Part shown: one piece after another, positions 416-47,037 of the stretch | Position numbering within the stretch: position 1 is the stretch's first letter | Layout of the letters: every line of letters starts with the position of its first letter | Assembly: GCA_003599295.1 (NCBI GenBank) | Contig: QZJK01000006.1 | Location: 14,681-78,680 of the forward strand | DNA: 64,000 nucleotides | Direction of reading: 5' to 3' | Origin: Candidatus Parcubacteria bacterium | GTDB lineage: Bacteria; Patescibacteriota; Minisyncoccia; Phycocordibacterales; UBA2100 | Position numbers and translations under genes: made by a program | The notes under the pieces: generated by a model | The model's input: the letters and a program-made list of their open reading frames with translations, nothing else | Told to the model about the DNA's origin: nothing | Database searches by the model: none

Positions 416-1372
416 ATGGACTACCGCGTCTTCAGCCTTGGCTCGAATGACGGTCTCGCGACGAAGATCGCAGAAACGCTGGGAATGCCGCTGGGCCAAG
501 TGAAGTGCAGAGCGTTCTCCGACGGCGAACAGCACGTGCAGTTCCTCGAAAATCTTCGCGGCAAGAATATCTTTCTCATTCAGTCGACGAATCCTCCGGC
601 GGAGAATTGGATACGGCTTCTTCTTGCGATAGATGCGGCACGTGGCGCTTCTGCCCGCGAAATAACCGCAGTCATACCATACTTCGGCTACTCACGGCAG
701 GATAGGAAAGCTCGACCGCGCGAACCGATTTCCGCGCGGATGTTCGCGGAGGCCCTCGAATCCGTCGGCGCGAACCGCATTCTTACGATGGACCTTCACA
801 ATGACGCCATCGGCGGTTTTTTCCGCGAGGCGAACGTAGACTATCTGTACGCGCGGCCGGTATTTCTCAACTATTTCCGCGATTATTTCAAAGAAGCGCT
901 CAAAAAAGATGACCTAGTCGTCGTATCACCGGATGCCGGAGGCACTGTTCGCGCCCAATCCTATGCGCGGCGTCTTATGAAATCCGCAGACCTCGCCATC
1001 ATCCACAAGGAGCGAGAGATACCCAACAAAGTCGCGCGCATGAAGCTCGCCGGAGACGTGAAAGGAAAAATTGCACTCATCGTGGACGATATGGCGGACA
1101 CCTGCGGCACCTTGGCGCGCGCAGTTGAACTGCTCGTCGAAAACGGCGCAACGGAAGTTTACGCGGCCGCGACGCACGGCATTCTTTCGGGAGACGCGAT
1201 ACAAACGTTGGAGTCTTCCGCCATTAAACGCGTCTTTATCACTGACACAGTGTCCACCGACCGCGAACTTGGTTCGAAAGTGGAAGTCGTATCAGTGGGA
1301 AAGACCTTCGGAGAAGCAATAGACCGTATCGAAAGCGGCGAATCTTTAAGCGCATTGTTTGAAACGGAGTAG
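416..1372 (+). CDS. prs: ribose-phosphate pyrophosphokinase
   Basis: 318-aa ORF with a typical Prs N-terminus (MDYRVFSLGSN...IAETLG...FSDGE) and a PRPP-binding region (IALIVDDMADTCGT). Confidence 0.9.
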   Translation: MDYRVFSLGSNDGLATKIAETLGMPLGQVKCRAFSDGEQHVQFLENLRGKNIFLIQSTNPPAENWIRLLLAIDAARGASAREITAVIPYFGYSRQDRKARPREPISARMFAEALESVGANRILTMDLHNDAIGGFFREANVDYLYARPVFLNYFRDYFKEALKKDDLVVVSPDAGGTVRAQSYARRLMKSADLAIIHKEREIPNKVARMKLAGDVKGKIALIVDDMADTCGTLARAVELLVENGATEVYAAATHGILSGDAIQTLESSAIKRVFITDTVSTDRELGSKVEVVSVGKTFGEAIDRIESGESLSALFETE

Positions 1373-1593
1373 GAACACTCGGGGTATTGTCCCCACAGAA
1401 CCCGGATGCGCTTTCCCGCGAAGCGCATCCTTAGGTTCGACGCTCGGCTCGCGCTTCGCGCGAGGCCAAGCCCTCGCGTCTGCACAGGTTCCGCACGGAC
1501 AATACCCCTCGCTTGGAGTTGGAAGGGGAACGTCCCAGATGCTTTAATTGCGCGTCTGAGAAAAACGCGTAATTATGAGCGCGTGCGATACAC

Positions 1594-1665
1594 GCTCCCA
1601 TAGTTTAATGGATAGAACGTAAGCTTCCGGAGCTTATGATCGAGGTTCGATTCCTCGTGGGAGCA
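1594..1665 (+). tRNA. tRNA-Arg(CCG)
   Basis: Acceptor gctccca/tgggagc. D-arm tagtttaatggatagaac. Anticodon stem taagc/gctta with loop ttCCGga. T-arm gaggttcgattcctc. Confidence 0.65.
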
Positions 1666-1725
1666 CACGAATACAGTGAGTACCGTAAGCAAGTCCTCGT
1701 TTTGAACGTCTGTTATACTATACAT

Positions 1726-2190
1726 ATGACGAAAACATGGCTTCTCTTGGGTTTAGCGCTCCTTCTCGCGATAGTCGCGGGGTTTCTTTTGTCTCTGCCT
1801 TCACAAACTCCAAGTGGCGAGGTTTCCGCCATTTCTACATTTGAGGAATGTGCCGCGGCAGGCTACCCAATCATGGAATCGTATCCGGAGCAATGCATGA
1901 CGCCTGATGGCCGCACGTTCACTCGAGACATTTCAGGGGTGGGCGGTGGAGAGGACATAACATTCAACGGTTGCGCGGTCGCGGGTTGCAGCGGACAACT
2001 CTGTGTTTCGGCGGAAGAGGCTGAAGGCATTTTCACGACGTGCGAATTTCGACCGGAATATGCATGCTATAGAGAAGCTTCATGCGAGCCGCAAGCTAAC
2101 GGAAAATGCGGTTGGACGGAAACAGCTGAGCTCCGGCAATGCCTCGCGAATCCTCCAGCACTTGATGATAGTGAACCGCAGGTTTACTGA
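1726..2190 (+). CDS. cysteine-rich secreted/membrane-anchored hypothetical protein
   Basis: The ORF-track start at 1636 overlaps tRNA-Arg. The internal Met (MTKTWLLLGLALLLAIVAGF) gives a signal/anchor helix, followed by 8 Cys in about 120 aa. Confidence 0.45.
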   Translation: MTKTWLLLGLALLLAIVAGFLLSLPSQTPSGEVSAISTFEECAAAGYPIMESYPEQCMTPDGRTFTRDISGVGGGEDITFNGCAVAGCSGQLCVSAEEAEGIFTTCEFRPEYACYREASCEPQANGKCGWTETAELRQCLANPPALDDSEPQVY

Positions 2191-2340
2191 CGACGTAGAG
2201 CGAGTGAAATGCAAATGTACTCATTTGCATTTCCGAGCCGAGGAGACAGAAACTGGCGTAAACGTGATTGCGCTTTTGCGCAGGGAGTGCATTCCGACCC
2301 GCAGGGTCAACGCCCTGTGGTGTCGGAATGAGCCAGTTTA

Positions 2341-4014
2341 CTAAAGTCGGCACATTTTGTTAGGATGGGTCGCGCAGGGCCCATAGTATAGCGGTAGAAC
2401 GGTTCCATGGCATGGAACAGGTCGGGGTTCGACTCCCCGTGGGTCCACATCGTAGGAGTTGGTAGTTACCAACTCATTAAATAACCTTGTACTGCTTAGC
2501 GAATGAGCGGTTCGATAACCCTCATTTTGGAAATAGGGCAATTTTCCATCAAACAGGAAGAAAAAGAGCCGCTGCTTTTCGTAAGCAGTGACACTTTTCC
2601 ATATACTTACAGGGTTATTGAGAAGCCCCGTCGCCTTTTCGAGAGCGGTTCGATAAGGTACGCCAGGGTCATCATTTGCACCCATTCTGGCCTCGATACT
2701 GTCGACCTCTTTGGCCGTAGTCTCCATCTCTTTCTCGTACTCTCTCCTCACAGTGTCTGAGGACGTCTTCCGTGCCAGCTCAGCGAGCTGCTTAATCTTC
2801 TTTTTGAGATCGTCCGCACGCTCTTGCATAAGTGTCTTATTCCATTCGACATTGCGTAGCTCTTGTGCCCAAACACGATCAAATACAGTCGCAACAACCT
2901 GCCCAACATCTTGCTTGAGAGCCGTACCTGCGAGAAGTAGTATGAAATTATCCTCAACCTCCTGCTTGTGAAGCATTTTGCTATAGCGTGCACAGACTTT
3001 GTTCTGGCAGTAGTAATATCCATATCTCGCGCTGCGCCCTTTAGACCACGCCCCCGTTAACGGTTTGCCACAATCGCTGCAAACGACCAGCGACCTCATC
3101 GGGAAGTCCTCCGACGTTGTTCTACGAACTTTTCCCCGAATACTATCCTTGTTCAGCCGCTTTAGTATCTGCGCGTGCATTTCGGGCGAGATGATACCTT
3201 GATGCTTGCCTTTGCCGCGAGGTACCTTCCACGGTTTATATTCGATGTCACCGCAGAAGAAACAATCTTCGAGTAACTCGCGTGTTTGTGTGATGCATTT
3301 ATCCGGAGAGCGACCCTTCCAGAATCCGCGCTCTACGAGGAAACGGGCGACATCAATTTGCCGCGCAAGATTGCCGGTAGCAAAGCCTTCGAGTGCTTCT
3401 TTGACCACTCCGAGCCCTTCTTTGTTTGGCACTGAGAATTTCCCATGCAGAGGGTTCTTCACCATGTCGTATCCACGTTTCTTTTTGAAGGGCCAATAGC
3501 CCAGCTCGAGACGAGCTTTCATTTTTTGAATCACTTGGCGTCGGTTCTGGAGTCGTTCGAGCTTTGCCTGTGCTGCAAATATGGTCTCGGCGAACTCTCC
3601 TTCGGGTGAGTCATCGAAGCTGTAGTTGAGACAGTGCAGTAAAACATCTCTCGCCTTGAACGCTGCTCGGAGTTTGAAGTGGAACTCTGTATCGCGAGCG
3701 AACCGTTTGAGATCATCGAAAATCACCAAGAATTTTTGATGCGGGTTTGCGTCTATGTAGTCCAGCATCTCTTTCATTGCAGGGCGTCGCATGAAATCGC
3801 CGCCTCCGGTGAAGCTGTCCGGAAAGGTTGCCTCGTAAGGCACACGCAGTCGATGCTCTAGCTCGTCTTTGCATCGTCCCTCCTGGCTCTGGAGTCCTGT
3901 GCCTTCGGATTCCTGTCGCTTGCTTGATACCCGGACATACACGAGACCGATTCTTCCTTCGTATGGCGAAGTAGTACTGGGGACGACTGTTTCATTTTCT
4001 GTTTTATTCACCAT
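2341..4014 (-). CDS. large serine recombinase (resolvase/invertase N-domain, recombinase domain, zinc ribbon, coiled coil)
   Basis: N-domain GLVYVRVSSKRQ with catalytic Ser. Zn-ribbon CSDCGKPL...YYYCQNKVC. Coiled-coil E/K-rich segment. The start was chosen at MVNKTEN; Met codons up to 4128 are possible. The in-frame C-terminal tail (about 35 aa) is encoded antisense across tRNA-Ala(GGC). Confidence 0.8.
   Translation of the reverse strand: MVNKTENETVVPSTTSPYEGRIGLVYVRVSSKRQESEGTGLQSQEGRCKDELEHRLRVPYEATFPDSFTGGGDFMRRPAMKEMLDYIDANPHQKFLVIFDDLKRFARDTEFHFKLRAAFKARDVLLHCLNYSFDDSPEGEFAETIFAAQAKLERLQNRRQVIQKMKARLELGYWPFKKKRGYDMVKNPLHGKFSVPNKEGLGVVKEALEGFATGNLARQIDVARFLVERGFWKGRSPDKCITQTRELLEDCFFCGDIEYKPWKVPRGKGKHQGIISPEMHAQILKRLNKDSIRGKVRRTTSEDFPMRSLVVCSDCGKPLTGAWSKGRSARYGYYYCQNKVCARYSKMLHKQEVEDNFILLLAGTALKQDVGQVVATVFDRVWAQELRNVEWNKTLMQERADDLKKKIKQLAELARKTSSDTVRREYEKEMETTAKEVDSIEARMGANDDPGVPYRTALEKATGLLNNPVSIWKSVTAYEKQRLFFFLFDGKLPYFQNEGYRTAHSLSSTRLFNELVTTNSYDVDPRGVEPRPVPCHGTVLPLYYGPCATHPNKMCRL
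2377..2447 (+). tRNA. tRNA-Ala(GGC)
   Basis: Acceptor gggccca/tgggtcc with G3:U70. Anticodon stem gttcc/ggaac with loop atGGCat. T-arm cgggg/ttcgact/ccccg. Confidence 0.65.
2458..2473. repeat. perfect palindrome gttggta-GT-taccaac, 11 bp after the tRNA-Ala 3' end; candidate serine-recombinase crossover core
   Basis: Read directly from the sequence: 7-bp arms around a central dinucleotide. It lies inside the recombinase ORF tail. Confidence 0.3.
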
Positions 4015-4270
4015 ACGGTCGTAGTTCATCTCTAATAATACTCCTGCAAACGTTCTCGACATACCAAAGCCTTCTGGATATAAGGTCATCGGGTGTTGTC
4101 TCGTCGCACAGTAGACGGCGATACTCATGGACGGACATGACAGTATCGCCGCTTCCTACAGTGCTAATAACGAGACCGTATACGACTGCAATAATCGTTG
4201 CGTCCGACACCGACACTGTGTCGTGAACAAATACCGCGATAGTCCTATTTTCTTCTGTCTTTGTGTTCAT
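4004..4270 (-). CDS. small hypothetical protein upstream of the recombinase (possible directionality factor or leader)
   Basis: 88-aa ORF filling the gap between the 4289..4816 gene and the recombinase start. No recognisable motif. Confidence 0.2.
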   Translation of the reverse strand: MNTKTEENRTIAVFVHDTVSVSDATIIAVVYGLVISTVGSGDTVMSVHEYRRLLCDETTPDDLISRRLWYVENVCRSIIRDELRPYGE

Positions 4271-4288
4271 ACGGTCTCCGTGTCGTGT

Positions 4289-4816
4289 TTAGGTTTTGAC
4301 TCCGCCCCCTTGGTCGTTTTGACCCCGATTCTGGTACGCCTCGAGGGGTTTCGTGTGGACATACAGTTGCGCCAGGATCGACCTTTTCTCTTCCTGCGCA
4401 TAGTCGTCTTTATCGACCAGTTTTTTGAACCATCGCCGAATCAGATCGGGGTGGAAGTTCTGCCCAAGAATCGTGAGGGCGAAGTTTAAATAAGTGCTGT
4501 GGTTAGGGCGCTCACGTTCGAGCGCTGCAAACCGGCGTTCAATGCTTCTCATACGAGTTGTTTTATGACCGAGTAATGTCGCACGATTTGGTATTTCATA
4601 TTCATTTGCGCCATTACTTCCCGAGAACGACAAAAGGAGCACGCGCCTTCCGACGTGCTCCTCCGCATTCCCGCCCAACAAAAAACCCGAAAGCGACCGG
4701 CGAATGTCGATTCCGTATGGTGTACGAAGAGAATCGCCAACCGCTTTCGAGCGGCTTGTTCGGATTACCGACACATGATCCTCGTACACCATGTATCCAT
4801 CCTCTCTAAGTACCAA
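4289..4816 (-). CDS. hypothetical protein (element cargo)
   Basis: 175-aa ORF co-oriented with the recombinase. No recognisable domain. Confidence 0.4.
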   Translation of the reverse strand: MVLREDGYMVYEDHVSVIRTSRSKAVGDSLRTPYGIDIRRSLSGFLLGGNAEEHVGRRVLLLSFSGSNGANEYEIPNRATLLGHKTTRMRSIERRFAALERERPNHSTYLNFALTILGQNFHPDLIRRWFKKLVDKDDYAQEEKRSILAQLYVHTKPLEAYQNRGQNDQGGGVKT

Positions 4817-13449: not shown

Positions 13450-15154
13450 GTTCGTACTGCGTGCGCGGCTCCTTTCCGGAGTCTTGATACTCATTGCCAT
13501 ATTTTTGGGCGCGCGCCTCTACTTTGTTCAGATAGTGAACGGCGAAGAATATCGCGAGAGCGCCAAGGGTCAGTACGTGGTCGAAACCGACCAAAGCATC
13601 ATCGATCGCGGCAATATCTTCTTCACGAAAAAGGACGGCACGCAGGATGGTGCGGCGGTCATGCAATCGGGATGGCGGGTCGCCATTTCTCCCAAGGACA
13701 TAAAAGATGCAAATGAGGTCTTTGCGGCAATAGCTGCGGAGACCGAACTGGACAGCGAGCGCTTCTTCGCGAGCACGGCGAAGGAAGAAGACCCCTATGA
13801 AGAGGTTGCGTTCCGTATTTCCGACGAAGCGGCCACCGCCATTCGCGCAAAGAAATTGCCCGGTGTGATACTCGTGAGAGATCAGTGGCGCTACTATCCG
13901 GCAGGGGAACTTGCCGCGCACGCGCTCGGTTTCGTCGGTTTCCAAGGCGACAAACGCGTCGGCGTCTACGGGCTCGAGCGGTTCTGGGAGGCGACGCTTT
14001 CGCGCACATCATCAGGACTCTATGTGAATCCGTTCGCGGAGATCTTTATGAATCTTGAAGAAGCTCTGACAGCTGATCCTGTCTCGCGAGAGGGAAGCAT
14101 TATTACGACCATAGAACCATCCGTCGAAACTCGCCTCGAAGAAACGCTGGAAGACGTGATGGAAACTTACTCGCCGAAATTGGTCGGCGGCATCATCATG
14201 GATCCGAAGACGGGTGCGATACGGGCGCTTGGGTTGCGTCCCGCATTCGATCCTAACACCTACAACACCATAGAGAATCCGGCGGTCTTCACGAATCTTC
14301 TCGTCGAAGGCAGGTACGAAATGGGATCCATTATGAAGCCTTTGACCATTGCGGCCGCGATAGATGCGGGTGCCGTGACGCCCGAAACTACATACATGGA
14401 CAGGGGATGCATTGAGAAAAGCGGGAAGACCATTTGCAACTACGACAAAAAAGCGCGCAACAGGGTCTCGATGCAGGAAGTATTGAATCAGTCGCTGAAC
14501 CTCGGCGTTTCGTACGCAGTCGACCAAATGGGGCATGAAGTGTTCGGGCAATACATTCACGCGTACGGTCTTGGCGACAAGACGGGCATCGAACTCCCAA
14601 ATGAGGCGGCGGGGAATATCCGCGCGATAGATAACGGGTACGACGTTGATTACGCCTCTGCGGGATTTGGACAAGGCATTGCTGTTTCGGCTGTCGGCAT
14701 GACGCGCGCGCTCGCAACGCTTGCGAACGAAGGCGTGCTCCCGAATCCGCATATCGTATCGGGTATTCGCATGAAAAGCGGCATTAGCCGCTCGGTCGAA
14801 CCGGAGGCCGGCACGCAGGTGTTAAAGCCGGAGACCGCGCAGACAGTTTCGACGATGCTCGTGAAAGTGTTCGATGACGCGCTTCTCGGTGGCATTCTGA
14901 AGCAGGAACACTATTCGATTGCGGCGAAAACCGGAACCGCGCAGGTCGCCGTTCCGAACGGAAGCGGCTACTATCCCGATCGCTACCTTCACTCGTTCTT
15001 CGGGTATTTTCCGGCGCACGACCCGCAGTTCATCGTCTTTCTGTTCGCCATCGAGCCGAAGGGAGTTGAATTCGCTTCCGCATCGCTCGCGCGGCCATTC
15101 CTCGAAGTCGCGAAGTATTTGATAAATTATTACGATATCCCACCAGACAGATGA
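13439..15154 (+). CDS. ftsI: penicillin-binding protein 2/3 transpeptidase
   Basis: N-terminal anchor and PBP dimerisation domain. Transpeptidase motifs SIMKP (SxxK), SxN and KTGTA. Confidence 0.85.
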   Translation: MRSKFVLRARLLSGVLILIAIFLGARLYFVQIVNGEEYRESAKGQYVVETDQSIIDRGNIFFTKKDGTQDGAAVMQSGWRVAISPKDIKDANEVFAAIAAETELDSERFFASTAKEEDPYEEVAFRISDEAATAIRAKKLPGVILVRDQWRYYPAGELAAHALGFVGFQGDKRVGVYGLERFWEATLSRTSSGLYVNPFAEIFMNLEEALTADPVSREGSIITTIEPSVETRLEETLEDVMETYSPKLVGGIIMDPKTGAIRALGLRPAFDPNTYNTIENPAVFTNLLVEGRYEMGSIMKPLTIAAAIDAGAVTPETTYMDRGCIEKSGKTICNYDKKARNRVSMQEVLNQSLNLGVSYAVDQMGHEVFGQYIHAYGLGDKTGIELPNEAAGNIRAIDNGYDVDYASAGFGQGIAVSAVGMTRALATLANEGVLPNPHIVSGIRMKSGISRSVEPEAGTQVLKPETAQTVSTMLVKVFDDALLGGILKQEHYSIAAKTGTAQVAVPNGSGYYPDRYLHSFFGYFPAHDPQFIVFLFAIEPKGVEFASASLARPFLEVAKYLINYYDIPPDR

Positions 15155-26584: not shown

Positions 26585-28105
26585 ATGGTAGAAGCAATAG
26601 AGAAGAATCAGAAGCCAGAGACACAAAAAGATCCGGATAAGAAGCTTGAGCAGATTTCCGTCGATTTGGCGCCTCTTACACCAGAGAGGCTTGATGAGGC
26701 GCTCTCACTCGCGCGTGTGATCTTCCCCGACATAGGTTCAAGCGAAGAACCACCCGACATCGTGTTTCCTGCAAGCCTTGAACCCGGGAAATATAGAGAA
26801 CAACTGGAAAGATTTAGCATCGATAAGCTCAATTACTGGCTTGCACAAGAGAACGGAAAAAGTGTAGGGATAATGGGTCTTTACAGCAGAACGGAAGATC
26901 CGAACGATACCGCATGGGTCGGATGGTATGGCGTCACTCCAGAGGCGCGCGGTAGAGGTGTAGGTGGCAAAATATTCCAAGAGACCATCGATAAGGCACG
27001 CACAGAGGGCGTAAAAGAATTAAAACTCTACACGACGGATGAAGACGATCCGGTAGCACACACGCTCTTCGAGAAATTTGGCTTTACAATTTCGAGCGAA
27101 GAAACCGCCCCAGAAGGTTACAAGATTACGTACATGTCAAAGCGGCTCGATGAAGCACCGCAGGAGCGCTCATTCATGCAGCGACTTATCGAGCGGAGCA
27201 GATACACACGCGATGATCCGAGCAATTTCAACACCGGTCTGGAGAGAAACGGCGAGAAATTCACTACAGAGACTATTGAGAGTATCGACCATCCTGATTT
27301 CCCAAAAATGCTCGACTTGTTCCGCAAAACGTTCAAACCAGACGAGGTTGATTCCCCCGAAACGATGCAACAATACATGGAAGAAAGCGAATTACTCATG
27401 CATATTATGAAAAATGACAAAGACGAAGTTGTGGCCGCACTTCTGGGGTATCGTTTTGATATGGGATCCAATGACCCGGCGTTCGCAAACAAAAGCATTT
27501 TCGGTGTTGATATGGTCACTACTAATCCCGAATATCAGCGAAAGGGACTCGCCAGGGAGTTATATATTTCTGCTGCGATGAAAGCCGAGAAAAACGCACA
27601 GGCTGAAGGAAAAAAGACTTCTCTCGCCATGGGAGAATGCACGTCCACTTCTGAAAAATTCTGGAATGATGTGGGGTGGAAGCGCATATATACTGTTGAT
27701 ACAAAAAACAAGAAACTCACAGAACTCAAGTATGTCCAGCCACCCGTGGAATTTGATGCAAAAACGGGCAAGTCAGCCGAGGGTCTAAGTGCAATACCGG
27801 AACATTTCATGACCGACAGTCTCGAACGGAAAACGCCGCCGACGAAAGAAGAGATTGCCGCAGTCGGAGCCGAGTGGCTCTCTTCTTTTGCCGAACCACA
27901 AGATTCTTTTGAAAGTCCGGAGGCGTATACAACCCATGAAGCCATGATGCAAGGGTACGTCGATGATTTCCAAAAGCAGCTAACTGGCGCCGAGCGCACC
28001 GTGCTATTGACCGAGCGAGCGCGGCGGCTGCTCTTAAGGCGCGGTTGGAGCATTGAAGAACATACTGCCGCTGACGGAGGAGTCGCGGGTCCAGAGGATT
28101 TTTAG
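26585..28105 (+). CDS. tandem GNAT-domain N-acetyltransferase
   Basis: Two acetyl-CoA motif A regions: ARGRGVGGKIF and YQRKGLAREL. Confidence 0.65.
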   Translation: MVEAIEKNQKPETQKDPDKKLEQISVDLAPLTPERLDEALSLARVIFPDIGSSEEPPDIVFPASLEPGKYREQLERFSIDKLNYWLAQENGKSVGIMGLYSRTEDPNDTAWVGWYGVTPEARGRGVGGKIFQETIDKARTEGVKELKLYTTDEDDPVAHTLFEKFGFTISSEETAPEGYKITYMSKRLDEAPQERSFMQRLIERSRYTRDDPSNFNTGLERNGEKFTTETIESIDHPDFPKMLDLFRKTFKPDEVDSPETMQQYMEESELLMHIMKNDKDEVVAALLGYRFDMGSNDPAFANKSIFGVDMVTTNPEYQRKGLARELYISAAMKAEKNAQAEGKKTSLAMGECTSTSEKFWNDVGWKRIYTVDTKNKKLTELKYVQPPVEFDAKTGKSAEGLSAIPEHFMTDSLERKTPPTKEEIAAVGAEWLSSFAEPQDSFESPEAYTTHEAMMQGYVDDFQKQLTGAERTVLLTERARRLLLRRGWSIEEHTAADGGVAGPEDF

Positions 28106-32746: not shown

Positions 32747-32758
32747 GTGATTTTGCGT

Positions 32759-33666
32759 ATGGCCAATCTTAAGTCCATAAAGTCAAAAATACTCTCCTAT
32801 AAAAAGACCGGAACGGTCACGCACGCCATGGAGGCGGTCTCGGCCGTGAAAATGCGGAAAGGCCAGGAACGCGCGCTTTCGGGCCGCGCGTATGCCGCCG
32901 CAGCGCTCTCCGTCATGGAACGCCTCTCCGGCACGGCCGATCTTTCGCGTCATTCACTGATGCAGGAGAGGGAAGGAAAAATCGCGCTCATCGTCATCAC
33001 GAGCGACAAGGGACTTGCCGGCTCCTTGAATAGCGGCGTCGTTCGCAAAGCGGAGCGCGAAGCAGGAATTTCCAAAGACAAGACGATCGTATTCGCTATC
33101 GGCAGACGGGGCGGGGAATACTTTTCTTCGCGCGGGTACGACGTGCGGATGAGGCTGCAAAATGTGAGCGATTCCGTCTCGGAAAGCGATATGCGGGAGG
33201 TCACGGATAAGGTACTCGAATTGCATGAAGCGGGGGAGATAACGAAATGCGCGGTCGTGTATCAGAATTTTATTTCGACGTTTGAGCAGGAGCCGACGGT
33301 ACGGAACATAATCCCCGTACGACCCGAAGCGATGAGAAAAGTAGTGGAAGGCATCCGCCCCGCCAAAGGAAAGTATGCGCCCCAAAAAGGGGGAGAGAAG
33401 GTGCACGCTCCGGCTTCATACACGGTGGAGCCTGACACCGACAGCGTATTGTCGGTACTTCTTCCGAAACTGATAAACATCGCCGTCTTTCATGCGCTCC
33501 TTGAGAACAAAGCCTCGGAGCATTCAGCCCGCATGGTGGCGATGAAAAGCGCGACCGACAAAGCGAAAGAAATGGCTCACAACCTGACGCGCACGTTCAA
33601 TAAGGTCCGCCAAGCCGCCATCACACGCGAGGTATCCGAAATAACGAGCGGCATCGAGGCGATGAA

Positions 33667-33670
<4 letters not shown>
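32759..33670 (+). CDS. atpG: F0F1 ATP synthase subunit gamma
   Basis: MANLKSIKSKI...ITKAMEAVSA N-terminus and a conserved C-terminal helix. Start chosen at ATG 32759; the ORF track starts at GTG 32747. Confidence 0.85.
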
Positions 33671-35438
<1,768 letters not shown>

Positions 35439-35748: not shown

Positions 35749-37722
35749 ATGCGAGCGCGAATCGTTCTCGTTGCGTGTCTTTTTCTTTTGACCCCTCTAT
35801 TCATCGTGCACGCCGCTGAAGAGGCGGCAAGTACGGAGACAGGAGAACCACAGGCGGTGTCCAGCTGCAGCAAAGATCAGTGTCAGGATGAAGAGGTCAT
35901 CGTATCGCCCAGCGCGAAGCCCCCAGTCTCATGCAAGCCGGGGAGGATAGTTCCGAAGGAGCAATGCAAATGTCAGGTCTCAAACGGAAAATATAGTGGA
36001 GCCGGTGTCGTTACCTGGAAAGATGTCACGGGAAAAACGACGAAGACTATCAGCAAGTGCGAGCCGAACTATGCGAAACGAATGGATCGCGTAAGCGATG
36101 CTCTTCAAAGCGATAATCCGGCAGAAGCCCTCAAGATAGAAGAAGCGCGGAATCTTCTGGAAACGAGTATTGCTGCCGGGGAGCTCCCCAAAGAAATTTC
36201 GGACGCATTTAGCCCCGCACAATTGAACACATTCAACCAGGAGCTAAAAGCGGATCCGCGGAGCGCGGCAGAGAAAATTGGAGCCCTCATGTACGGCGAC
36301 AGTCAAGAGAAGTTAGTGGCAGCGCAATCGCTCGGCATAACAGGAGACCAGCTTGATAGGCTCGGGAAACTTGCGGTGAGACTCACCCCGCCGGACGATA
36401 CGTATGAATCGGCAGTGAATACATTCAAAGGCGCGCTTTCCGGATATCAGCCGCCGGTGGCACAGGTGACCGGCTTTGGAGCCACCGATGGAAATCGCAC
36501 CATTGTTCCGCAAAACCTTGTACTTAATCCGACGGGAACTCCAACAGCTCCGACAGAGCGGAGAATAGTCAACGGCCGCTTGCAGGAAAAAATCGACCCA
36601 CAGGTCCTCGGTACGCTTGCGGCAGACGCTCAGGCGAAAGTCTGCGCCGCCGTCCGCGGAACATGTTATGTAACGACGGAAGCGCAGTTCGGAACAATGA
36701 TGAACGAGACAAGCGGCGATGTCCGGGTGCTTGGAGACGGGGGAAATTCAGCGAGCCTCGCGCAGGCATACGCATCACAATCCGGCTTTGGACAGTATCT
36801 CTCCCGATACAAAGCAGTATTCGGCGAAGACTACGTGTTGCATAAAACAGATATCGGCAACCCTTCCGTCAATCCGGAGTGGATAGCGTCTCAAAGTGTT
36901 CGCATGCAAGCCATCATTCTTCAAGATAAAGCTCAGATAGTTGGCGGCAATTTCGCCCGCCAGGTTACCGCCTACAATGGTAGTGGTCCGGCCGCAGCGG
37001 CATACGGGAGTCGTGCGCTCCAAAACACACAGCTCCTCCAAAGCGGCAACGCGAGGTCGTATTGGCAAGCGGCGTACGATGTGGCCACAGAAGGCGGCGG
37101 ACCCACCATTACGAACCTGACGCCGGTCAATCTCCCAGGATACAGGGGAGGAACCGCGACCTCACCGTTCGCCAACGTGAGCATGTTCAACTCCGGACCG
37201 ACGGGAGTGTCTGGCCCGACCGGCTCTCCGCTCGGTTCTGTATTCCAAAGCGGCGGATCTTCACCGCGTCCTTCCGCACCGTCTTCGGGAGGCGCGCCAT
37301 CTACGCCTATCCAACCTGTACCGGGAGGAGGCACGATTACGCCGGTACCGGGACAAGGAACTGTGTCTGGTCCTTCTCCCGCGCAACAGCTAGAAGATGC
37401 GCTCAAACCGACCGGGGAGACTCCGCAGACGCTCCAACCGGTGCAAGCGGTCGCCACCATCATCGCCCAGCCGTCGGGCATCACGCGAGGAAGATCAGTC
37501 ATCGTTTCCTGGTCATCCGTCGGCATGAGCACGAATGTGCCCTGCACGGTAACGCTCCAAAGCGGCACCACCACATCTGTCGTAGGGCAAGGGAACGAAG
37601 GCACGAGAACTATCGAGACGAGCACGACCTCGGCGTCGGGCACATGGAATTTCGTCCTCAAATGCACAGCAGCCACGAACGGCACAGCAATAGAGCGCAC
37701 AACGTCAGTCCCTGTTGAATAA
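35749..37722 (+). CDS. large secreted protein with G/S/T/P-rich low-complexity C-terminal region
   Basis: Signal peptide MRARIVLVACLFLLTPLFIVHAA. 657 aa. Cys-containing N-terminus and T/S/G/P-rich tail. Confidence 0.5.
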   Translation: MRARIVLVACLFLLTPLFIVHAAEEAASTETGEPQAVSSCSKDQCQDEEVIVSPSAKPPVSCKPGRIVPKEQCKCQVSNGKYSGAGVVTWKDVTGKTTKTISKCEPNYAKRMDRVSDALQSDNPAEALKIEEARNLLETSIAAGELPKEISDAFSPAQLNTFNQELKADPRSAAEKIGALMYGDSQEKLVAAQSLGITGDQLDRLGKLAVRLTPPDDTYESAVNTFKGALSGYQPPVAQVTGFGATDGNRTIVPQNLVLNPTGTPTAPTERRIVNGRLQEKIDPQVLGTLAADAQAKVCAAVRGTCYVTTEAQFGTMMNETSGDVRVLGDGGNSASLAQAYASQSGFGQYLSRYKAVFGEDYVLHKTDIGNPSVNPEWIASQSVRMQAIILQDKAQIVGGNFARQVTAYNGSGPAAAAYGSRALQNTQLLQSGNARSYWQAAYDVATEGGGPTITNLTPVNLPGYRGGTATSPFANVSMFNSGPTGVSGPTGSPLGSVFQSGGSSPRPSAPSSGGAPSTPIQPVPGGGTITPVPGQGTVSGPSPAQQLEDALKPTGETPQTLQPVQAVATIIAQPSGITRGRSVIVSWSSVGMSTNVPCTVTLQSGTTTSVVGQGNEGTRTIETSTTSASGTWNFVLKCTAATNGTAIERTTSVPVE

Positions 37723-43644: not shown

Positions 43645-46600
43645 ATGCGGAAATACGACCACCGGAAGATAGAGAAAAAATGGCAGGCTGATTGGGGCAA
43701 GAAAAAGCTCTACGAGACCCGGGACAGCGTGAAGGGGAGAGACAATTTTTACCTCCTTGTCGAGTTCCCGTATCCGTCTGGAAATCTCCATGTCGGACAC
43801 TGGTACGCCTTTTCTGTGCCGGACATTTTGGCGCGCATGCTCCGGATGCAGGGGAAGAACGTGCTCTTTCCCGTGGGGTTCGACGCATTCGGGCTTCCGG
43901 CCGAGAACGCCGCCATCAAGAACAAACTGAACCCGAGAAAGTGGACTTTCGGCAACATCGCCTACATGCGGAAGCAGATGCACTCGATGGGCACGTCATT
44001 CGATTGGTCGCGCGAGGTCATCACGTGCGACCCCGCGTACTATAGGTGGACTCAGTGGCAATTCCTGCAGTTCTTGAAGAAGGGATTAGCGTACCGAAAA
44101 GAAACGGCAGTGAATTGGTGTCCTTCATGCAAAACCGTCTTGGCGAATGAGCAGGTCGTGGACGGACGGTGCGAGCGCTGCAAGACAGAAGTCGTGCAAA
44201 AAGAGATGTTGCAGTGGAACATGAAGATAACCGACTACGCGGATAGGCTCGTCGATGACCTCGAACCTCTCGATTGGCCGGAACAGATAAAGGAATCTCA
44301 AAAGAATTGGATAGGACGCTCGGAAGGCGCGGAAATTGATTTTCCGCTTGCTATCGGCGGCATTAAACGATTTGTGCTGTTGCATGGACGAGAGGGCTCT
44401 CCGGAAAAAGGGTTCTTTCCATGGCTCAAAATCGAACTAGAGAAGCGCGGATATGAAGTACAAGTACCCACACTGCCAAATACCGAAGAGCCGAACGACG
44501 AAGCGCAGGCGGATTACGTGCAAGAACACTGTACTCTGGATGAAGATACGGTTGTTATAGGTCATTCTTTCGGAGGCGTCGTCGCATTGCGTTTACTCGA
44601 ACGTGGCAAGAAGGTACAGCGTGTTTCGCTGGTTTCTACGCCGTACTCAGGGACGTACCTGGATTCTAAAAAGCGCGCGAGTGTGACCGAGGCATGCAAA
44701 AAAGGATTTGATTTCGGAAAAATAAAGAGGAATGCGCAGTCTTTCATTGTATTACCCGATAGTACGGATCTCGTCGTACCATCATCGGACGCGGAGCATC
44801 TTGCGAAGGGACTCAATGGTTTGTTATTGAAAGGCGTTGGGACGAAACCGCACTTTGGAGGTTCTCGAGAGCCCGACGTACTTATGGCGAGTATTCCGGT
44901 TATCCGCGTTTTTACCACGCGCCCCGATACGCTCTTTGGTGCGACATACTTGGTGCTCGCTCCGGAACATCCGTGGGTCACGCTTGCGCTCGATGAAAAG
45001 CACGATGTTCTTGAGAACAAAGAAGAGGTGCAGAGGTATGTAAGGGAAGCGCGCAAGAAAACGGAACTTGAGCGGCAGACAGAGCAGAAGGAAAAGACAG
45101 GGGTTCCGTTGAAAGGCGTAAAAGCGATTAACCCCGGTACGGGGCTCCAGATACCGATATACGTTGCCGATTACGTGCTGGGAGGATACGGTACAGGCGC
45201 AATCATGGCCGTGCCTGCGCATGACGAGCGCGATTATGCGTTTGCGAAAAAGTTCAACTTGCCGATACAAGAAGTTATCGAGCCTATATTCATCAGAACG
45301 GCCGGACCGGACGCCCTTCGCCACGAAGGGCCAGTTCTGGACAGGCCCGCCATTAATGCCGTGATACGGCGACCGTCAGACGGAAAGTATCTTGCTCAGA
45401 CGTACAAACCTACCATCACGCAGGGATTCGTGTCGGGGGGTATCGAAGATAACGAAGCACCTATTGAAGCCGCGATCCGGGAGGTTCGGGAAGAAACAGG
45501 CTATGCGGACATTTCATATGTGAAGCACATCGGCGGCGTCGTTCATAGCAAGTATTACAGCCCGCAGAGAGGGACGAACATTTTCGCGCACTTCACACCG
45601 CTCCTTTTTGAGCTGAAGAGCGACCGTCGCGTCGAAATGGTTTCTGAGGAAAGGGCGATGCACAGTACGCAATGGTTGGATGCCGACGAACTGACCGCAT
45701 ACATTAATCGTGAGGATTTCAGGTTTGTTTGGCAGCGCGTTCAAAAAGAGACGACGTACTATACCGGAGAGGGGATACTCGCGAATTCCGGGGAATTTTC
45801 TGGCATGGGAAGCGAGGCTGCGCGAAAGAGTATCGCTGAGAAATTCGGGCGCTTGAAGAAAACCTATAAAATGCGTGATTGGGTGGTTTCTCGCCAGCGC
45901 TACTGGGGAGTTCCGATACCCGTCATCCACTGTCCGAAATGCGGCGCGGTACCGGTGCCCGATAAGGACCTGCCGGTCAAACTGCCGGAGGTGAAAGATT
46001 ATCTCCCTGACGGCCGCGGCAAATCACCGCTCGCGAAGGCCACGAAATGGGTCTCGGTAAAATGCCCGAACTGCAAAGGGAAAGCCGAGCGGGAAACGGA
46101 TACACTCGACACATTCGTGGATTCTTCGTGGTACTACCTCCGCTACACCGACTCGAAGAACACAAAGAAATTCGCCGACCCCAAGAATCAAGCGAAGTGG
46201 ATGCCGGTGAACCTCTATTCAGGCGGAGCCGAACACACGACGATGCACGTCTTGTACTCCCGTTTCTGGCAGAAAGCTCTCTACGACATGAAGCTCGTGA
46301 AGGACAAAGAGCCATACACGCGCCGCATGAACAGAAGTCTCATTCTGGGGCCCGACGGTCAAAAGATGTCGAAATCGCGGGGAAATGTCATTGATCCGGA
46401 TGAGGTCGTCGCGCGGCTCGGCGCCGACACCGTGCGCATGTACCTCGCGTTCATCGGACCGTATAACGAAGTGTCGAACTATCCGTGGAATCCTGACGGC
46501 GTCGCCGGCGTCCGTCGGTTCCTTGAGCGCGTGTGGAATGTGCAGGAGCAATCCAAGACGGCGGGCAAGGACGTTAAAGAACTTGAGCCGCTTCTCCATA

Positions 46601-47037
46601 AAACGATAAAGAAAGTGGGAGAAGACATCGCGGCACAGAAATTCAATACTGCCTTGAGTCAGCTGATGATATTCCTGAATGCCGTGGAAAAAGCGCGCTC
46701 GATAGGCGTGAAGCAGTGGGGGACATTCCTGCGTCTTCTCGCTCCGTTCGCGCCGCATATGGCAGAAGAACTCTGGCACGAGCTGGGGAACAAAAAATCC
46801 GTGCACATGGAGAAGTGGCCGCTTTTTGACCCAGCGCTACTTCAAGAGGATACGGTGCGTATCGCCGTGCAGATAAATGGAAAAACACGCGGAGAAACGG
46901 AAGTACCGACGGGAGCCGACAAAGCCGTACAAGAAAAGGCGGCGCGCGAAGCGGTCGCAGTGCGCCTAGAAGGGAAGAGTGTCGTTCGCACTATTGTAGT
47001 GCCGAATCGTCTCGTCAATTTCGTTCTTAAAGTTTAG
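43645..47037 (+). CDS. leuS: leucyl-tRNA synthetase with two inserted domains (YdeN-like serine hydrolase about 44350-44895; NUDIX about 45277-45780)
   Basis: HIGH-like PYPSGNLHVGH, editing-domain TTRPDT, GTGAIMAVPAHDERDY and KMSKS all present in one 1130-aa frame. After NWIGRSEGAEIDF, about 180 aa carry GHSFGG and FIVLPDSTDLVV. After FNLPIQEV, about 165 aa carry the Nudix box GGIEDNEAPIEAAIREVREETGY. Confidence 0.9.
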   Translation: MRKYDHRKIEKKWQADWGKKKLYETRDSVKGRDNFYLLVEFPYPSGNLHVGHWYAFSVPDILARMLRMQGKNVLFPVGFDAFGLPAENAAIKNKLNPRKWTFGNIAYMRKQMHSMGTSFDWSREVITCDPAYYRWTQWQFLQFLKKGLAYRKETAVNWCPSCKTVLANEQVVDGRCERCKTEVVQKEMLQWNMKITDYADRLVDDLEPLDWPEQIKESQKNWIGRSEGAEIDFPLAIGGIKRFVLLHGREGSPEKGFFPWLKIELEKRGYEVQVPTLPNTEEPNDEAQADYVQEHCTLDEDTVVIGHSFGGVVALRLLERGKKVQRVSLVSTPYSGTYLDSKKRASVTEACKKGFDFGKIKRNAQSFIVLPDSTDLVVPSSDAEHLAKGLNGLLLKGVGTKPHFGGSREPDVLMASIPVIRVFTTRPDTLFGATYLVLAPEHPWVTLALDEKHDVLENKEEVQRYVREARKKTELERQTEQKEKTGVPLKGVKAINPGTGLQIPIYVADYVLGGYGTGAIMAVPAHDERDYAFAKKFNLPIQEVIEPIFIRTAGPDALRHEGPVLDRPAINAVIRRPSDGKYLAQTYKPTITQGFVSGGIEDNEAPIEAAIREVREETGYADISYVKHIGGVVHSKYYSPQRGTNIFAHFTPLLFELKSDRRVEMVSEERAMHSTQWLDADELTAYINREDFRFVWQRVQKETTYYTGEGILANSGEFSGMGSEAARKSIAEKFGRLKKTYKMRDWVVSRQRYWGVPIPVIHCPKCGAVPVPDKDLPVKLPEVKDYLPDGRGKSPLAKATKWVSVKCPNCKGKAERETDTLDTFVDSSWYYLRYTDSKNTKKFADPKNQAKWMPVNLYSGGAEHTTMHVLYSRFWQKALYDMKLVKDKEPYTRRMNRSLILGPDGQKMSKSRGNVIDPDEVVARLGADTVRMYLAFIGPYNEVSNYPWNPDGVAGVRRFLERVWNVQEQSKTAGKDVKELEPLLHKTIKKVGEDIAAQKFNTALSQLMIFLNAVEKARSIGVKQWGTFLRLLAPFAPHMAEELWHELGNKKSVHMEKWPLFDPALLQEDTVRIAVQINGKTRGETEVPTGADKAVQEKAAREAVAVRLEGKSVVRTIVVPNRLVNFVLKV

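Follow-up and report, generated by a model that had tools for sequence, protein, structure and literature searches.

A leucyl-tRNA synthetase of Patescibacteria with a serine hydrolase and a Nudix hydrolase nested in its editing domain

We describe a bacterial leucyl-tRNA synthetase (LeuRS) in which two further hydrolase domains are inserted, in frame, into the CP1 editing domain. The gene, leuS, occupies positions 43645 to 47037 of a 64,000-nucleotide stretch of contig QZJK01000006.1 from a Candidatus Parcubacteria bacterium (assembly GCA_003599295.1, contig positions 14,681 to 78,680), which we refer to as the window. It is a gene of Kaiserbacteria-type Patescibacteria, members of the Candidate Phyla Radiation. 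Insert 1 is a complete alpha/beta serine hydrolase of the RBBP9/YdeN family, and insert 2 is a complete Nudix hydrolase domain. We are highly confident in this architecture, in the catalytic competence of both inserts and in their dispensability for the host enzyme. That the inserts are active accessory enzymes functionally coupled to LeuRS is a real possibility, which we would stop just short of calling probable, and the specific substrates that we propose for each domain, chosen by analogy, are tentative suggestions.

Aminoacyl-tRNA synthetases are among the best-studied enzymes, and their gain of new domains is seen mainly as a eukaryotic phenomenon in which the added domains are usually non-catalytic. 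The present protein is a bacterial LeuRS with two complete and apparently active hydrolases inside its editing domain.

A bacterial LeuRS in a single reading frame

A first-pass annotation of the window, made from the letters and their translations, had placed all LeuRS landmarks in one frame of 1130 residues, and each line of evidence agreed. The NCBIfam model leuS_bact (TIGR00396) scores the whole protein at 959.5 bits against a cut-off of 548.4, which marks it as a bacterial-type LeuRS, and the open reading frame (ORF) matches the LeuRS structures of Thermus thermophilus (E = 1e-225) and Escherichia coli (E = 1e-188). Pfam detects tRNA-synt_1, the LeuRS editing domain (PF13603, 188.7 bits) and Anticodon_1 (PF08264). 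Alignment to the E. coli and Thermus enzymes, which the annotation had proposed as a check, yielded a collinear core with two inserts inside CP1. Against T. thermophilus LeuRS (1h3n), four collinear blocks are obtained, with residues 1-235 matching 1-236, residues 420-546 matching 243-363, residues 706-903 matching 377-580 and residues 907-1129 matching 637-877. The coordinates first assigned to the inserts are correct, and the motifs quoted with them (LLHGREGS, GHSFGG, FIVLPDSTDLVV, GGIEDNEAPIEAAIREVREETGY, TTRPDT, GTGAIMAVPAHDERDY and KMSKS) are all present. The features of the gene are as follows.

43645-47037, forward strand: complete leuS ORF, 1130 residues plus stop, a single ATG-to-stop frame in the ORF list
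43645-44349, forward strand: N-terminal half of the catalytic (Rossmann) domain with the ZN-1 region, residues 1-235, aligned with T. thermophilus 1-236
43789-43800, forward strand: HIGH motif (HVGH), residues 49-52, 99-100% conserved in 120 homologues
44350-44901, forward strand: insert 1, complete RBBP9/YdeN-family alpha/beta serine hydrolase, residues 236-419, Pfam PF06821
Within insert 1: oxyanion motif His247-Gly, His247 invariant in 116 of 116 sequences
44566-44568, forward strand: Ser308 of the nucleophile elbow GHSFG (GHSxG), invariant in 116 of 116
44767-44769, forward strand: catalytic acid Asp375, Asp or Glu in 116 of 116 LeuRS-family sequences
44851-44853, forward strand: catalytic His403, invariant in 116 of 116
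44902-45282, forward strand: core of the CP1 editing domain, residues 420-546, PF13603, aligned with T. thermophilus 243-363
44914-44931, forward strand: T-rich peptide TTRPDT, residues 424-429, within CP1
Residues 525-530: AHDERD editing motif, within CP1
45283-45759, forward strand: insert 2, complete Nudix hydrolase domain, residues 547-705, Pfam PF00293
45436-45504, forward strand: Nudix box, Gly598 to Tyr620, GGIEDNEAPIEAAIREVREETGY, fitting the consensus GX5EX7REUXEEXGU
45760-47034, forward strand: C-terminal part of CP1, second catalytic half, anticodon-binding and C-terminal domains, residues 706-1130, aligned with T. thermophilus 377-580 and 637-877, PF08264
46348-46359, forward strand: GPDG linker, residues 902-905, 92-100% conserved, in place of the leucine-specific domain
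46363-46377, forward strand: KMSKS, residues 907-911, 100% conserved in homologues

Across the 120 homologues, the core motifs HIGH, KMSKS, TTRxDT and AHDxRD are 97-100% conserved, which argues that the host is probably a working LeuRS with canonical editing. Both the T-rich peptide of CP1 and the conserved Asp that binds the alpha-amine are present in the window protein. The structure alignment found no counterpart of the leucine-specific domain (approximately residues 581-636 in T. thermophilus) ahead of KMSKS. This absence does not exclude the protein from the LeuRS family, because the domain is known to be dispensable (PMC3643597).

Insert 1 is an RBBP9/YdeN-type serine hydrolase

In the alignment to 1h3n, approximately 184 residues of insert 1 replace six Thermus residues just before the T-rich editing peptide. 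The position corresponds to a hairpin in a CP1 surface loop, a few residues upstream of TTRPDT. The segment had been likened to YdeN and RBBP9 on the strength of its motifs, and the assignment now draws on four kinds of evidence. Insert 1 passes the gathering score of Ser_hydrolase (PF06821) with 30.8 bits against 22. A profile built from 32 insert-1 sequences and searched against the PDB matched human RBBP9 (E = 4e-22) and Bacillus subtilis YdeN (E = 5e-22), covering about 180 of 186 residues. The AlphaFold2 model of the insert, computed like that of insert 2 for the isolated domain, has a predicted local distance difference test (pLDDT) score of 96.1. Foldseek aligned this model with 1uxo, 2qs9 and 7oex at template modelling (TM) scores of 0.76-0.80 and E values of about 1e-13, with the next alpha/beta hydrolases at about 1e-7. 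The fourth kind is the conserved Ser-Asp-His triad listed above.

The triad extends beyond LeuRS. When 153 hydrolase domains taken from a broad range of hosts are aligned, the nucleophile column holds Ser in 152, and the acid column holds Asp or Glu in 145 of 150. One correction concerns the catalytic acid. Alignment with RBBP9 and YdeN, together with the 153-domain alignment, assigns this role to Asp375, the second Asp of the segment PDSTD, rather than to Asp372, which is an additional Asp conserved in the insert-1 subfamily. Glu108 of RBBP9, which anchors the alpha-amine of the substrate, aligns to a Lys-rich loop of insert 1 where the alignment is unreliable; a conserved Asp340 lies three columns upstream.

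Insert 2 is a Nudix hydrolase

Insert 2 comprises approximately 159 residues in place of 13 Thermus residues and follows the AHDxRDY editing motif, in a variable CP1 loop. The proposal that it is a NUDIX domain with a canonical box was upheld by its score on PF00293 (50.8 bits; gathering score 21.1), by a best Foldseek probability of 1.0 and by the conservation of the box itself. Both families that the first-pass annotation expected from a Pfam run on the inserts, Ser_hydrolase and NUDIX, were thus found above their gathering scores. Within the box, Gly598, Glu604, Arg612, Glu613, Glu616, Glu617 and Gly619 are conserved in 94-100% of approximately 115 sequences, and downstream of it Glu669 is invariant and Trp677 nearly so in the same set. 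A conserved aromatic pair at residues 637 and 638, located 17-18 residues past the box, resembles what we take to be the Tyr marker of diadenosine polyphosphate (ApnA) hydrolases.

The AlphaFold2 model of insert 2 has a pLDDT of 95.1, shows the alpha/beta/alpha sandwich of Nudix proteins and retrieved 508 Nudix-type matches from the PDB at E ≤ 1e-3. The best were an Enterococcus faecalis MutT/Nudix protein, the diadenosine tetraphosphate (Ap4A) hydrolase of Aquifex, E. coli RppH and Mycobacterium smegmatis MutT1, with Chlamydia CT771, the lupin and human Ap4A hydrolases and Thermus Ndx1 also near the top, all at 18-24% identity. On the NCBIfam RppH models, insert 2 falls far below the cut-offs.

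Taken together, the Pfam, profile, model and fold evidence means that both inserts are complete, independently folding enzyme domains and therefore not extended LeuRS loops. The first-pass annotation had itself named the latter outcome, ordinary lineage-specific CP1 inserts lacking a hydrolase fold, as the one that would overturn it; each insert proved to carry an enzyme fold.

The window also contains a free-standing Nudix gene of 135 residues (33667-34074, forward strand). As a source of insert 2 it was rejected, with similarity confined to the Nudix box and a score of 15.6 bits against the insert profile. This gene sits between two ORFs at 32747-33670 and 34071-35438, with overlapping stops and starts, and these flanking ORFs look like putative ATP synthase gamma and beta genes.

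Distribution among homologues

A search for the same insertions in related genomes, one of the checks put forward at the outset, returned one identical protein from JGI and more than 100 clusters at 60-69% identity with equal length and Pfam content. These homologues come from NCBI, JGI, ENA and Logan assemblies, on contigs of up to 481 kb; those with names belong to Candidatus Kaiserbacteria, Parcubacteria, Paceibacterota or Patescibacteria. Among the best 120 homologue clusters, 110 carry both inserts, six the hydrolase alone and four the Nudix domain alone. The double-insert architecture is thus present in at least 110 public protein clusters and, judging from sequence, is widespread in this lineage of the Candidate Phyla Radiation. 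The architecture is real in the window LeuRS, but it is not unique to this gene. It has been in public databases under generic names ("class I tRNA ligase family protein", "alpha/beta fold hydrolase", "leucyl-tRNA synthetase").

Relative to the window protein, the inserts of these 120 closest clusters are 41-45% identical, compared with 70-80% for the LeuRS core. Rapid evolution of the inserts combined with frozen catalytic residues indicates selection for catalysis.

Loss of the inserts

The proteins with a single insert are scattered in a core-only distance tree, form no clades and have double-insert proteins as nearest neighbours, with up to 88% core identity. Their junctions are clean, with a short canonical loop at the site of the missing insert. 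A hydrolase-only locus (L008) and a Nudix-only locus (L009) share the neighbourhood of the window gene, consisting of YchF GTPase, DUF5671, LeuRS, CysRS on the opposite strand, S41 peptidase, L9, L27 and RNase T, and they are orthologues of the window gene on this basis. We also considered whether the lost Nudix insert of L008 is compensated by a nearby free-standing Nudix gene, which was unsupported, as similarity between the two is confined to the Nudix box.

A scan of species-representative genomes uncovered LeuRS proteins with neither insert, encoded by intact ORFs at 82-85% core identity (L014, 806 residues; L017, 813 residues). L014 (1255-3666) is nearly identical to the Nudix-only L010 (1501-4383) and still has about 12 residues that match the beginning of the Nudix insert (ESLDIRTSEMDT vs EPMIERTIGSDA). 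This remnant is a deletion scar, and the loss of the Nudix insert is therefore secondary and recent. Since same-locus orthologues exist without one or both inserts, LeuRS does not need them. In the same scan, neither insert was found in LeuRS from outside the Candidate Phyla Radiation (Chloroflexi, Firmicutes, Cyanobacteria, Thermotogae and others).

In one further locus (L097, 3669-6775), a LeuRS with the hydrolase at the insert-1 site is split into three ORFs beside MetRS and TatD on a 372-kb contig. The fragmentation could reflect a pseudogene, a split gene or frameshift errors in long reads.

Other sites, other hosts and free-standing genes

To follow the hydrolase beyond the window, we searched its insert profile against 1.84 billion cluster representatives, which gave 4952 relatives, 89 of them at E < 1e-30, and we classified the hosts of the best 150 of the 4952. 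The strongest 89 representatives comprise 49 hosted by LeuRS, seven in other identified hosts, 31 short proteins and two unclassified; the predominance of LeuRS is biased because the profile was made from LeuRS inserts.

Within LeuRS, the hydrolase occupies two sites, namely site A, which is the position of insert 1 in the window, and site B, within the ZN-2 region of the catalytic body. Site B is used in at least ten cluster representatives and also in a genome named Uhrbacteria (L061), and tandem copies of the hydrolase occur as well. For the Nudix subfamily of insert 2, at least three positions in LeuRS were found. Other domains are also nested in LeuRS proteins of Parcubacteria (P0182, P0209, P0148), namely an IS200-type Y1 transposase domain where the window LeuRS has insert 1, a GNAT acetyltransferase and a HAD phosphatase.

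Outside LeuRS, the hydrolase subfamily is nested in ValRS, AlaRS, Met-tRNA formyltransferase (Fmt), TsaD, SecA, UvrA and Der/EngA. It is also fused to adenylate kinase (Adk), Ham1 ITPase, peptidases (S51, S33/S9), glyoxalase, an Smr domain and generic Nudix domains. The nested forms and the fusions to Adk and Ham1 are represented by P0158, P0172, P0192, P0195, P0202, P0230, P0236, P0167, P0232 and P0181. Across the lineage, housekeeping proteins seem to acquire whole inserted enzyme domains habitually. Stand-alone fusions are represented by P0243, P0262, P0235, P0259, P0216, P0220, P0234, P0226 and P0253, with NUDIX fusions in both domain orders. We did not accept these fusions as proof of a dedicated Ser_hydrolase and NUDIX pair; their Nudix partners fall outside the insert-2 subfamily (13-25 bits), and the association is only suggestive. 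In a tree of the hydrolase domains, those from different hosts are interspersed with one another and with the free-standing proteins.

Patescibacteria and DPANN archaea commonly encode free-standing members of the family. The two that are closest to insert 1 are P0129 (180 residues, 218 bits, 11 contigs) and P0136 (179 residues, 208 bits, 48% identical to insert 1). Both genes lie 2-6 nucleotides upstream of an insert-free leuS on the same strand. With an identity of only 38% between them, the two hydrolases belong to separate lineages. In L090-L092, the hydrolase gene (224-766) ends in TAA and is followed, after a 6-nucleotide spacer, by leuS (773-3202) with a complete LeuRS N-terminus; in L096, the hydrolase (2289-2828) ends in TAA two nucleotides before a LeuRS (2831-4558) in a different reading frame. 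Two free-standing members that are more remote, P0170 and P0277, have unrelated neighbourhoods. The subfamily is thus linked with leuS in three forms, since it occurs as an operon-like neighbour, as an insert at site A and as an insert at site B. That loops tolerate insertion is not enough to account for this link.

A Nudix ORF also lies approximately 0.7-1 kb downstream of insert-free, Saccharibacteria-type leuS at three loci (L034, 4873-5424; L070, 2686-3216; L074, 4949-5437). Their scores on the insert-2 profile are only 34-38 bits, so that they hint weakly at a neighbourhood shared by Nudix genes and leuS.

Proposed function and alternatives

Our results raise the question of what two hydrolases might do inside a LeuRS. 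The reading that we put first, and which falls just short of probable, is that both inserts may be active accessory enzymes kept coupled to LeuRS. A bolder version makes the RBBP9/YdeN-type hydrolase an unrecognised partner of aminoacyl-tRNA synthetases, which would hydrolyse aminoacyl esters or adenylates and thereby either edit or supply amino acids. Its repeated recruitment in Patescibacteria would have placed it beside leuS in an operon and inside LeuRS, ValRS and AlaRS at several sites, and the co-nested Nudix domain would serve as an on-enzyme Ap4A hydrolase. This bolder version we hold loosely and consider possible, on balance unlikely.

In the reading put first, the core with its HIGH and KMSKS motifs would activate leucine and transfer it to tRNALeu, and CP1, by means of the T-rich peptide and the conserved Asp, would perform post-transfer editing. 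The inserts would take no part in the mechanism of aminoacylation itself; their co-expression with LeuRS or tethering to it might reflect substrates linked to aminoacyl-adenylate or aminoacyl-ester chemistry. RBBP9, the sole characterised member of the hydrolase family found in the literature searched, is an aminopeptidase with a strict need for a free alpha-amine (PMC8866121). By analogy, the serine hydrolase would cleave the acyl bond, ester or amide, of an amino acid with a free alpha-amine. The Nudix domain, in turn, might cleave Ap4A-type dinucleoside polyphosphates, a by-product of aminoacyl-adenylate and ATP. Aminoacyl-tRNA synthetases make Ap4A from these two compounds, and RppH, MutT1 and NUDT2 are Nudix enzymes that hydrolyse Ap4A asymmetrically to ATP and AMP (PMC7705103). 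Because of this synthesis, and because Nudix Ap4A hydrolases are among the top fold matches of insert 2, an on-enzyme ApnA hydrolase would be the most economical guess.

Several observations weigh against this proposal. The assignment of insert 2 to a Nudix subfamily is indecisive, resting on weak similarity (18-24% identity), and Glu108, the alpha-amine anchor of RBBP9, has no clear counterpart in insert 1. The search profile was built from LeuRS inserts, which biases the host counts towards LeuRS, and the adjacency to leuS could be history, for example a local duplication or an insertion from the neighbouring gene. The subfamily also occurs in hosts without aminoacyl chemistry (SecA, UvrA, Der/EngA, adenylate kinase and Ham1 ITPase); these hosts and the intermixed domain tree therefore make a host-independent passenger role a serious alternative.

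As pure passengers, the inserts would be house-cleaning serine and Nudix hydrolases nested in an essential, constitutive gene of a streamlined genome, with substrates unrelated to LeuRS and a host that supplies expression only. We regard this as a credible account, albeit one that is probably not correct. It is favoured by the nesting of the subfamily in SecA, TsaD, UvrA, Der/EngA and Fmt and its fusion to Adk, Ham1, peptidases and glyoxalase, by the HAD, GNAT and Y1-transposase domains that LeuRS also hosts, by the existence of several insertion sites within LeuRS, by the repeated clean loss of the inserts, and by the abundance of free-standing relatives in Patescibacteria and DPANN archaea. 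It fits less well with the position of the two closest free-standing relatives, both directly upstream of leuS, which loop tolerance does not explain. LeuRS is moreover by far the commonest host among close relatives, as found with a LeuRS-biased query, and five of the hosts other than LeuRS work on aminoacyl-tRNA, on aminoacyl-adenylates or on intermediates of a similar kind (ValRS, AlaRS, Fmt and TsaD). The other synthetase genes in the window, for CysRS, a GluRS-type enzyme and a class II Asp/Asn/Lys-type enzyme, carry no inserts.

Alternatively, as in the idea that the first-pass annotation listed first, the inserts could provide extra proofreading in cis, with the hydrolase acting as a second deacylase for mischarged tRNALeu or aminoacyl-adenylate beside CP1 and the Nudix domain sanitising nucleotides at the active site. 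The location of insert 1 only a few residues upstream of the T-rich editing peptide would suit such a role, as would the cleavage of aminoacyl bonds by RBBP9-type enzymes with their need for a free alpha-amine, and the hosts include the editing synthetases LeuRS, ValRS and AlaRS. We nevertheless consider it distinctly unlikely. The canonical editing residues of CP1 are fully kept, so that no gap in editing is evident, and close orthologues have lost the hydrolase with their editing motifs visibly unchanged. Other LeuRS proteins carry the hydrolase outside CP1, in the ZN-2 region of their catalytic body, and it also exists as a separate gene and in hosts that are not synthetases; nesting in unrelated housekeeping proteins argues against a simply integral extra proofreading site.

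A role in substrate provision is improbable. Here the hydrolase would act as an aminopeptidase that frees hydrophobic amino acids from scavenged peptides, and the Nudix domain would regenerate ATP and AMP from dinucleoside polyphosphates, so that both would feed LeuRS in a cell that is auxotrophic and poor in energy. Aminopeptidase activity is established for RBBP9, Peptidase_S51 and S33/S9-type peptidases occur as fusion partners of the family, the synthetase hosts (Leu, Val and Ala) all use hydrophobic amino acids, and asymmetric Nudix Ap4A hydrolases do yield ATP and AMP. The case is wholly analogical, however; it leaves the non-synthetase hosts unexplained, and no specificity determinants were identified.

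We think it very improbable that the inserts are selfish or neutral domain cassettes, mobile in frame and spreading among essential genes with no benefit to the cell. Patchy distribution over many hosts and sites would be expected of such cassettes, one LeuRS has an IS200-type Y1 transposase domain at the insert-1 site, and the GC content at third codon positions of insert 1 (0.48) is clearly below that of the LeuRS core (0.65-0.71), with insert 2 and the CP1 core at 0.60. Yet the catalytic residues are invariant over deep divergence where neighbouring positions vary, as expected under selection for activity. The frame is continuous, and flanking direct and inverted repeats are short and at chance level, which disfavours a mobile DNA element or intron. 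The first-pass annotation had noted the absence of intein motifs, and protein splicing was indeed rejected: there is no Hint or intein match in Pfam, and neither insert ends in His-Asn followed by Cys, Ser or Thr (insert 1 ends in MASIPVIR followed by VFTT, and insert 2 in TTYYTGEGIL followed by ANSG). The Pfam scan of the ORF likewise found no homing-endonuclease domain. A viral or defence origin was dismissed as well, with weak and partial IMG/VR matches at 28-30% identity, generic Nudix matches alone in PHROGs and one weak PADLOC match.

Finally, an assembly or annotation artefact, in which separate genes are joined by a frameshift (a concern raised by the first-pass annotation itself) or in a chimeric contig, has a negligible chance of being correct, for the fragmented locus L097 is all that speaks for it, the ORF is single and uninterrupted, LeuRS continues in frame on both sides of each insert, and at least 110 clusters from independent NCBI, JGI, ENA and Logan assemblies, with contigs to 481 kb, share the architecture.

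Other features of the window

At the start of the window, four tRNA genes are clustered (56-2447) beside a serine recombinase of 595 residues (2341-4128, reverse strand; Resolvase and Zn_ribbon_recom). At its end, the recombinase ORF runs into the tRNA at 2377-2447, and the region may be an integrated element. A protein of 506 residues (26585-28105, forward strand) contains two GNAT acetyltransferase domains, and an ORF of 657 residues (35749-37722, forward strand) has no Pfam match at E ≤ 1e-5.

Implications

The first-pass annotation knew of no LeuRS with this architecture, and the literature that we searched held none; the sequences themselves are public and generically annotated. A full-text search by topic returned no description of a LeuRS, or of any aminoacyl-tRNA synthetase, with nested serine-hydrolase and Nudix domains, nor of the wider phenomenon of domain insertion in Patescibacteria.

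Should the coupling of the inserts to LeuRS be functional, it would represent a new layer of quality control or substrate handling in the translation of minimal-genome organisms and would give the RBBP9/YdeN family a testable function. If the partner-enzyme reading is true, the poorly understood PF06821 family would gain a physiological role, and the CP1 loops of class Ia synthetases would be natural docking sites for whole enzymes. Should there be no functional coupling, the same data would point to an unusually permissive insertion of whole domains into essential proteins in the Candidate Phyla Radiation. Genome annotation is affected as well, in genes that are now named "alpha/beta fold hydrolase" or "class I tRNA ligase family protein". 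For protein engineering, the inserts mark natural permissive sites in CP1 and ZN-2.

Comparison with known systems

The window LeuRS shares its core domains and motifs, in the same order, with canonical bacterial LeuRS (T. thermophilus 1H3N; E. coli 4AQ7 and 4ARC). It differs from them by the approximately 184 and 159 extra residues that form two enzyme domains in CP1, and by the absence of the leucine-specific domain. In the latter respect it resembles LeuRS of Mycoplasma mobile, where a Gly-x-Asp-Gly tetrapeptide also replaces the leucine-specific domain before KMSKS (GPDG here, GKDG there). The GKDG linker of the M. mobile enzyme was shown experimentally to support charging and editing (PMC3643597). 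M. mobile LeuRS lacks CP1, whereas the window enzyme keeps this domain and has it enlarged by two foreign ones.

Compared with RBBP9/YdeN hydrolases (PF06821; 2QS9, 7OEX and 1UXO), insert 1 has the complete fold (TM approximately 0.8), equal length, the HG motif, GxSxG and the Ser-Asp-His triad. Unlike them, it is nested in another enzyme, does not clearly keep the Glu108 anchor and has the extra Asp372 of its subfamily. Insert 2 has the canonical box and fold of Nudix Ap4A/ApnA hydrolases and RppH (3I7U, 4S2X/7SP3, MutT1, CT771 and 1F3Y), from which it is set apart by its 18-24% identity and by its nesting in LeuRS. Its leading hits, by structure and by profile alike, are mostly such enzymes.

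Small hydrolases that act on aminoacyl-tRNA, such as the trans-editing factors AlaX, YbaK/ProX and DTD, occur fused to synthetases or free-standing. They parallel the fused, adjacent and free forms of the insert-1 hydrolase, with unrelated folds, and PF06821 proteins are not known to deacylate aminoacyl-tRNA. A precedent for the architecture itself is IleRS with an embedded GNAT domain (NCBIfam NF040702, ileS_w_GNAT), a model included in our NCBIfam scan. Host and guest both differ from those described here, and IleRS has a single insert. As a class Ia synthetase with a foreign catalytic domain, it means that such domains in this class are not without precedent.

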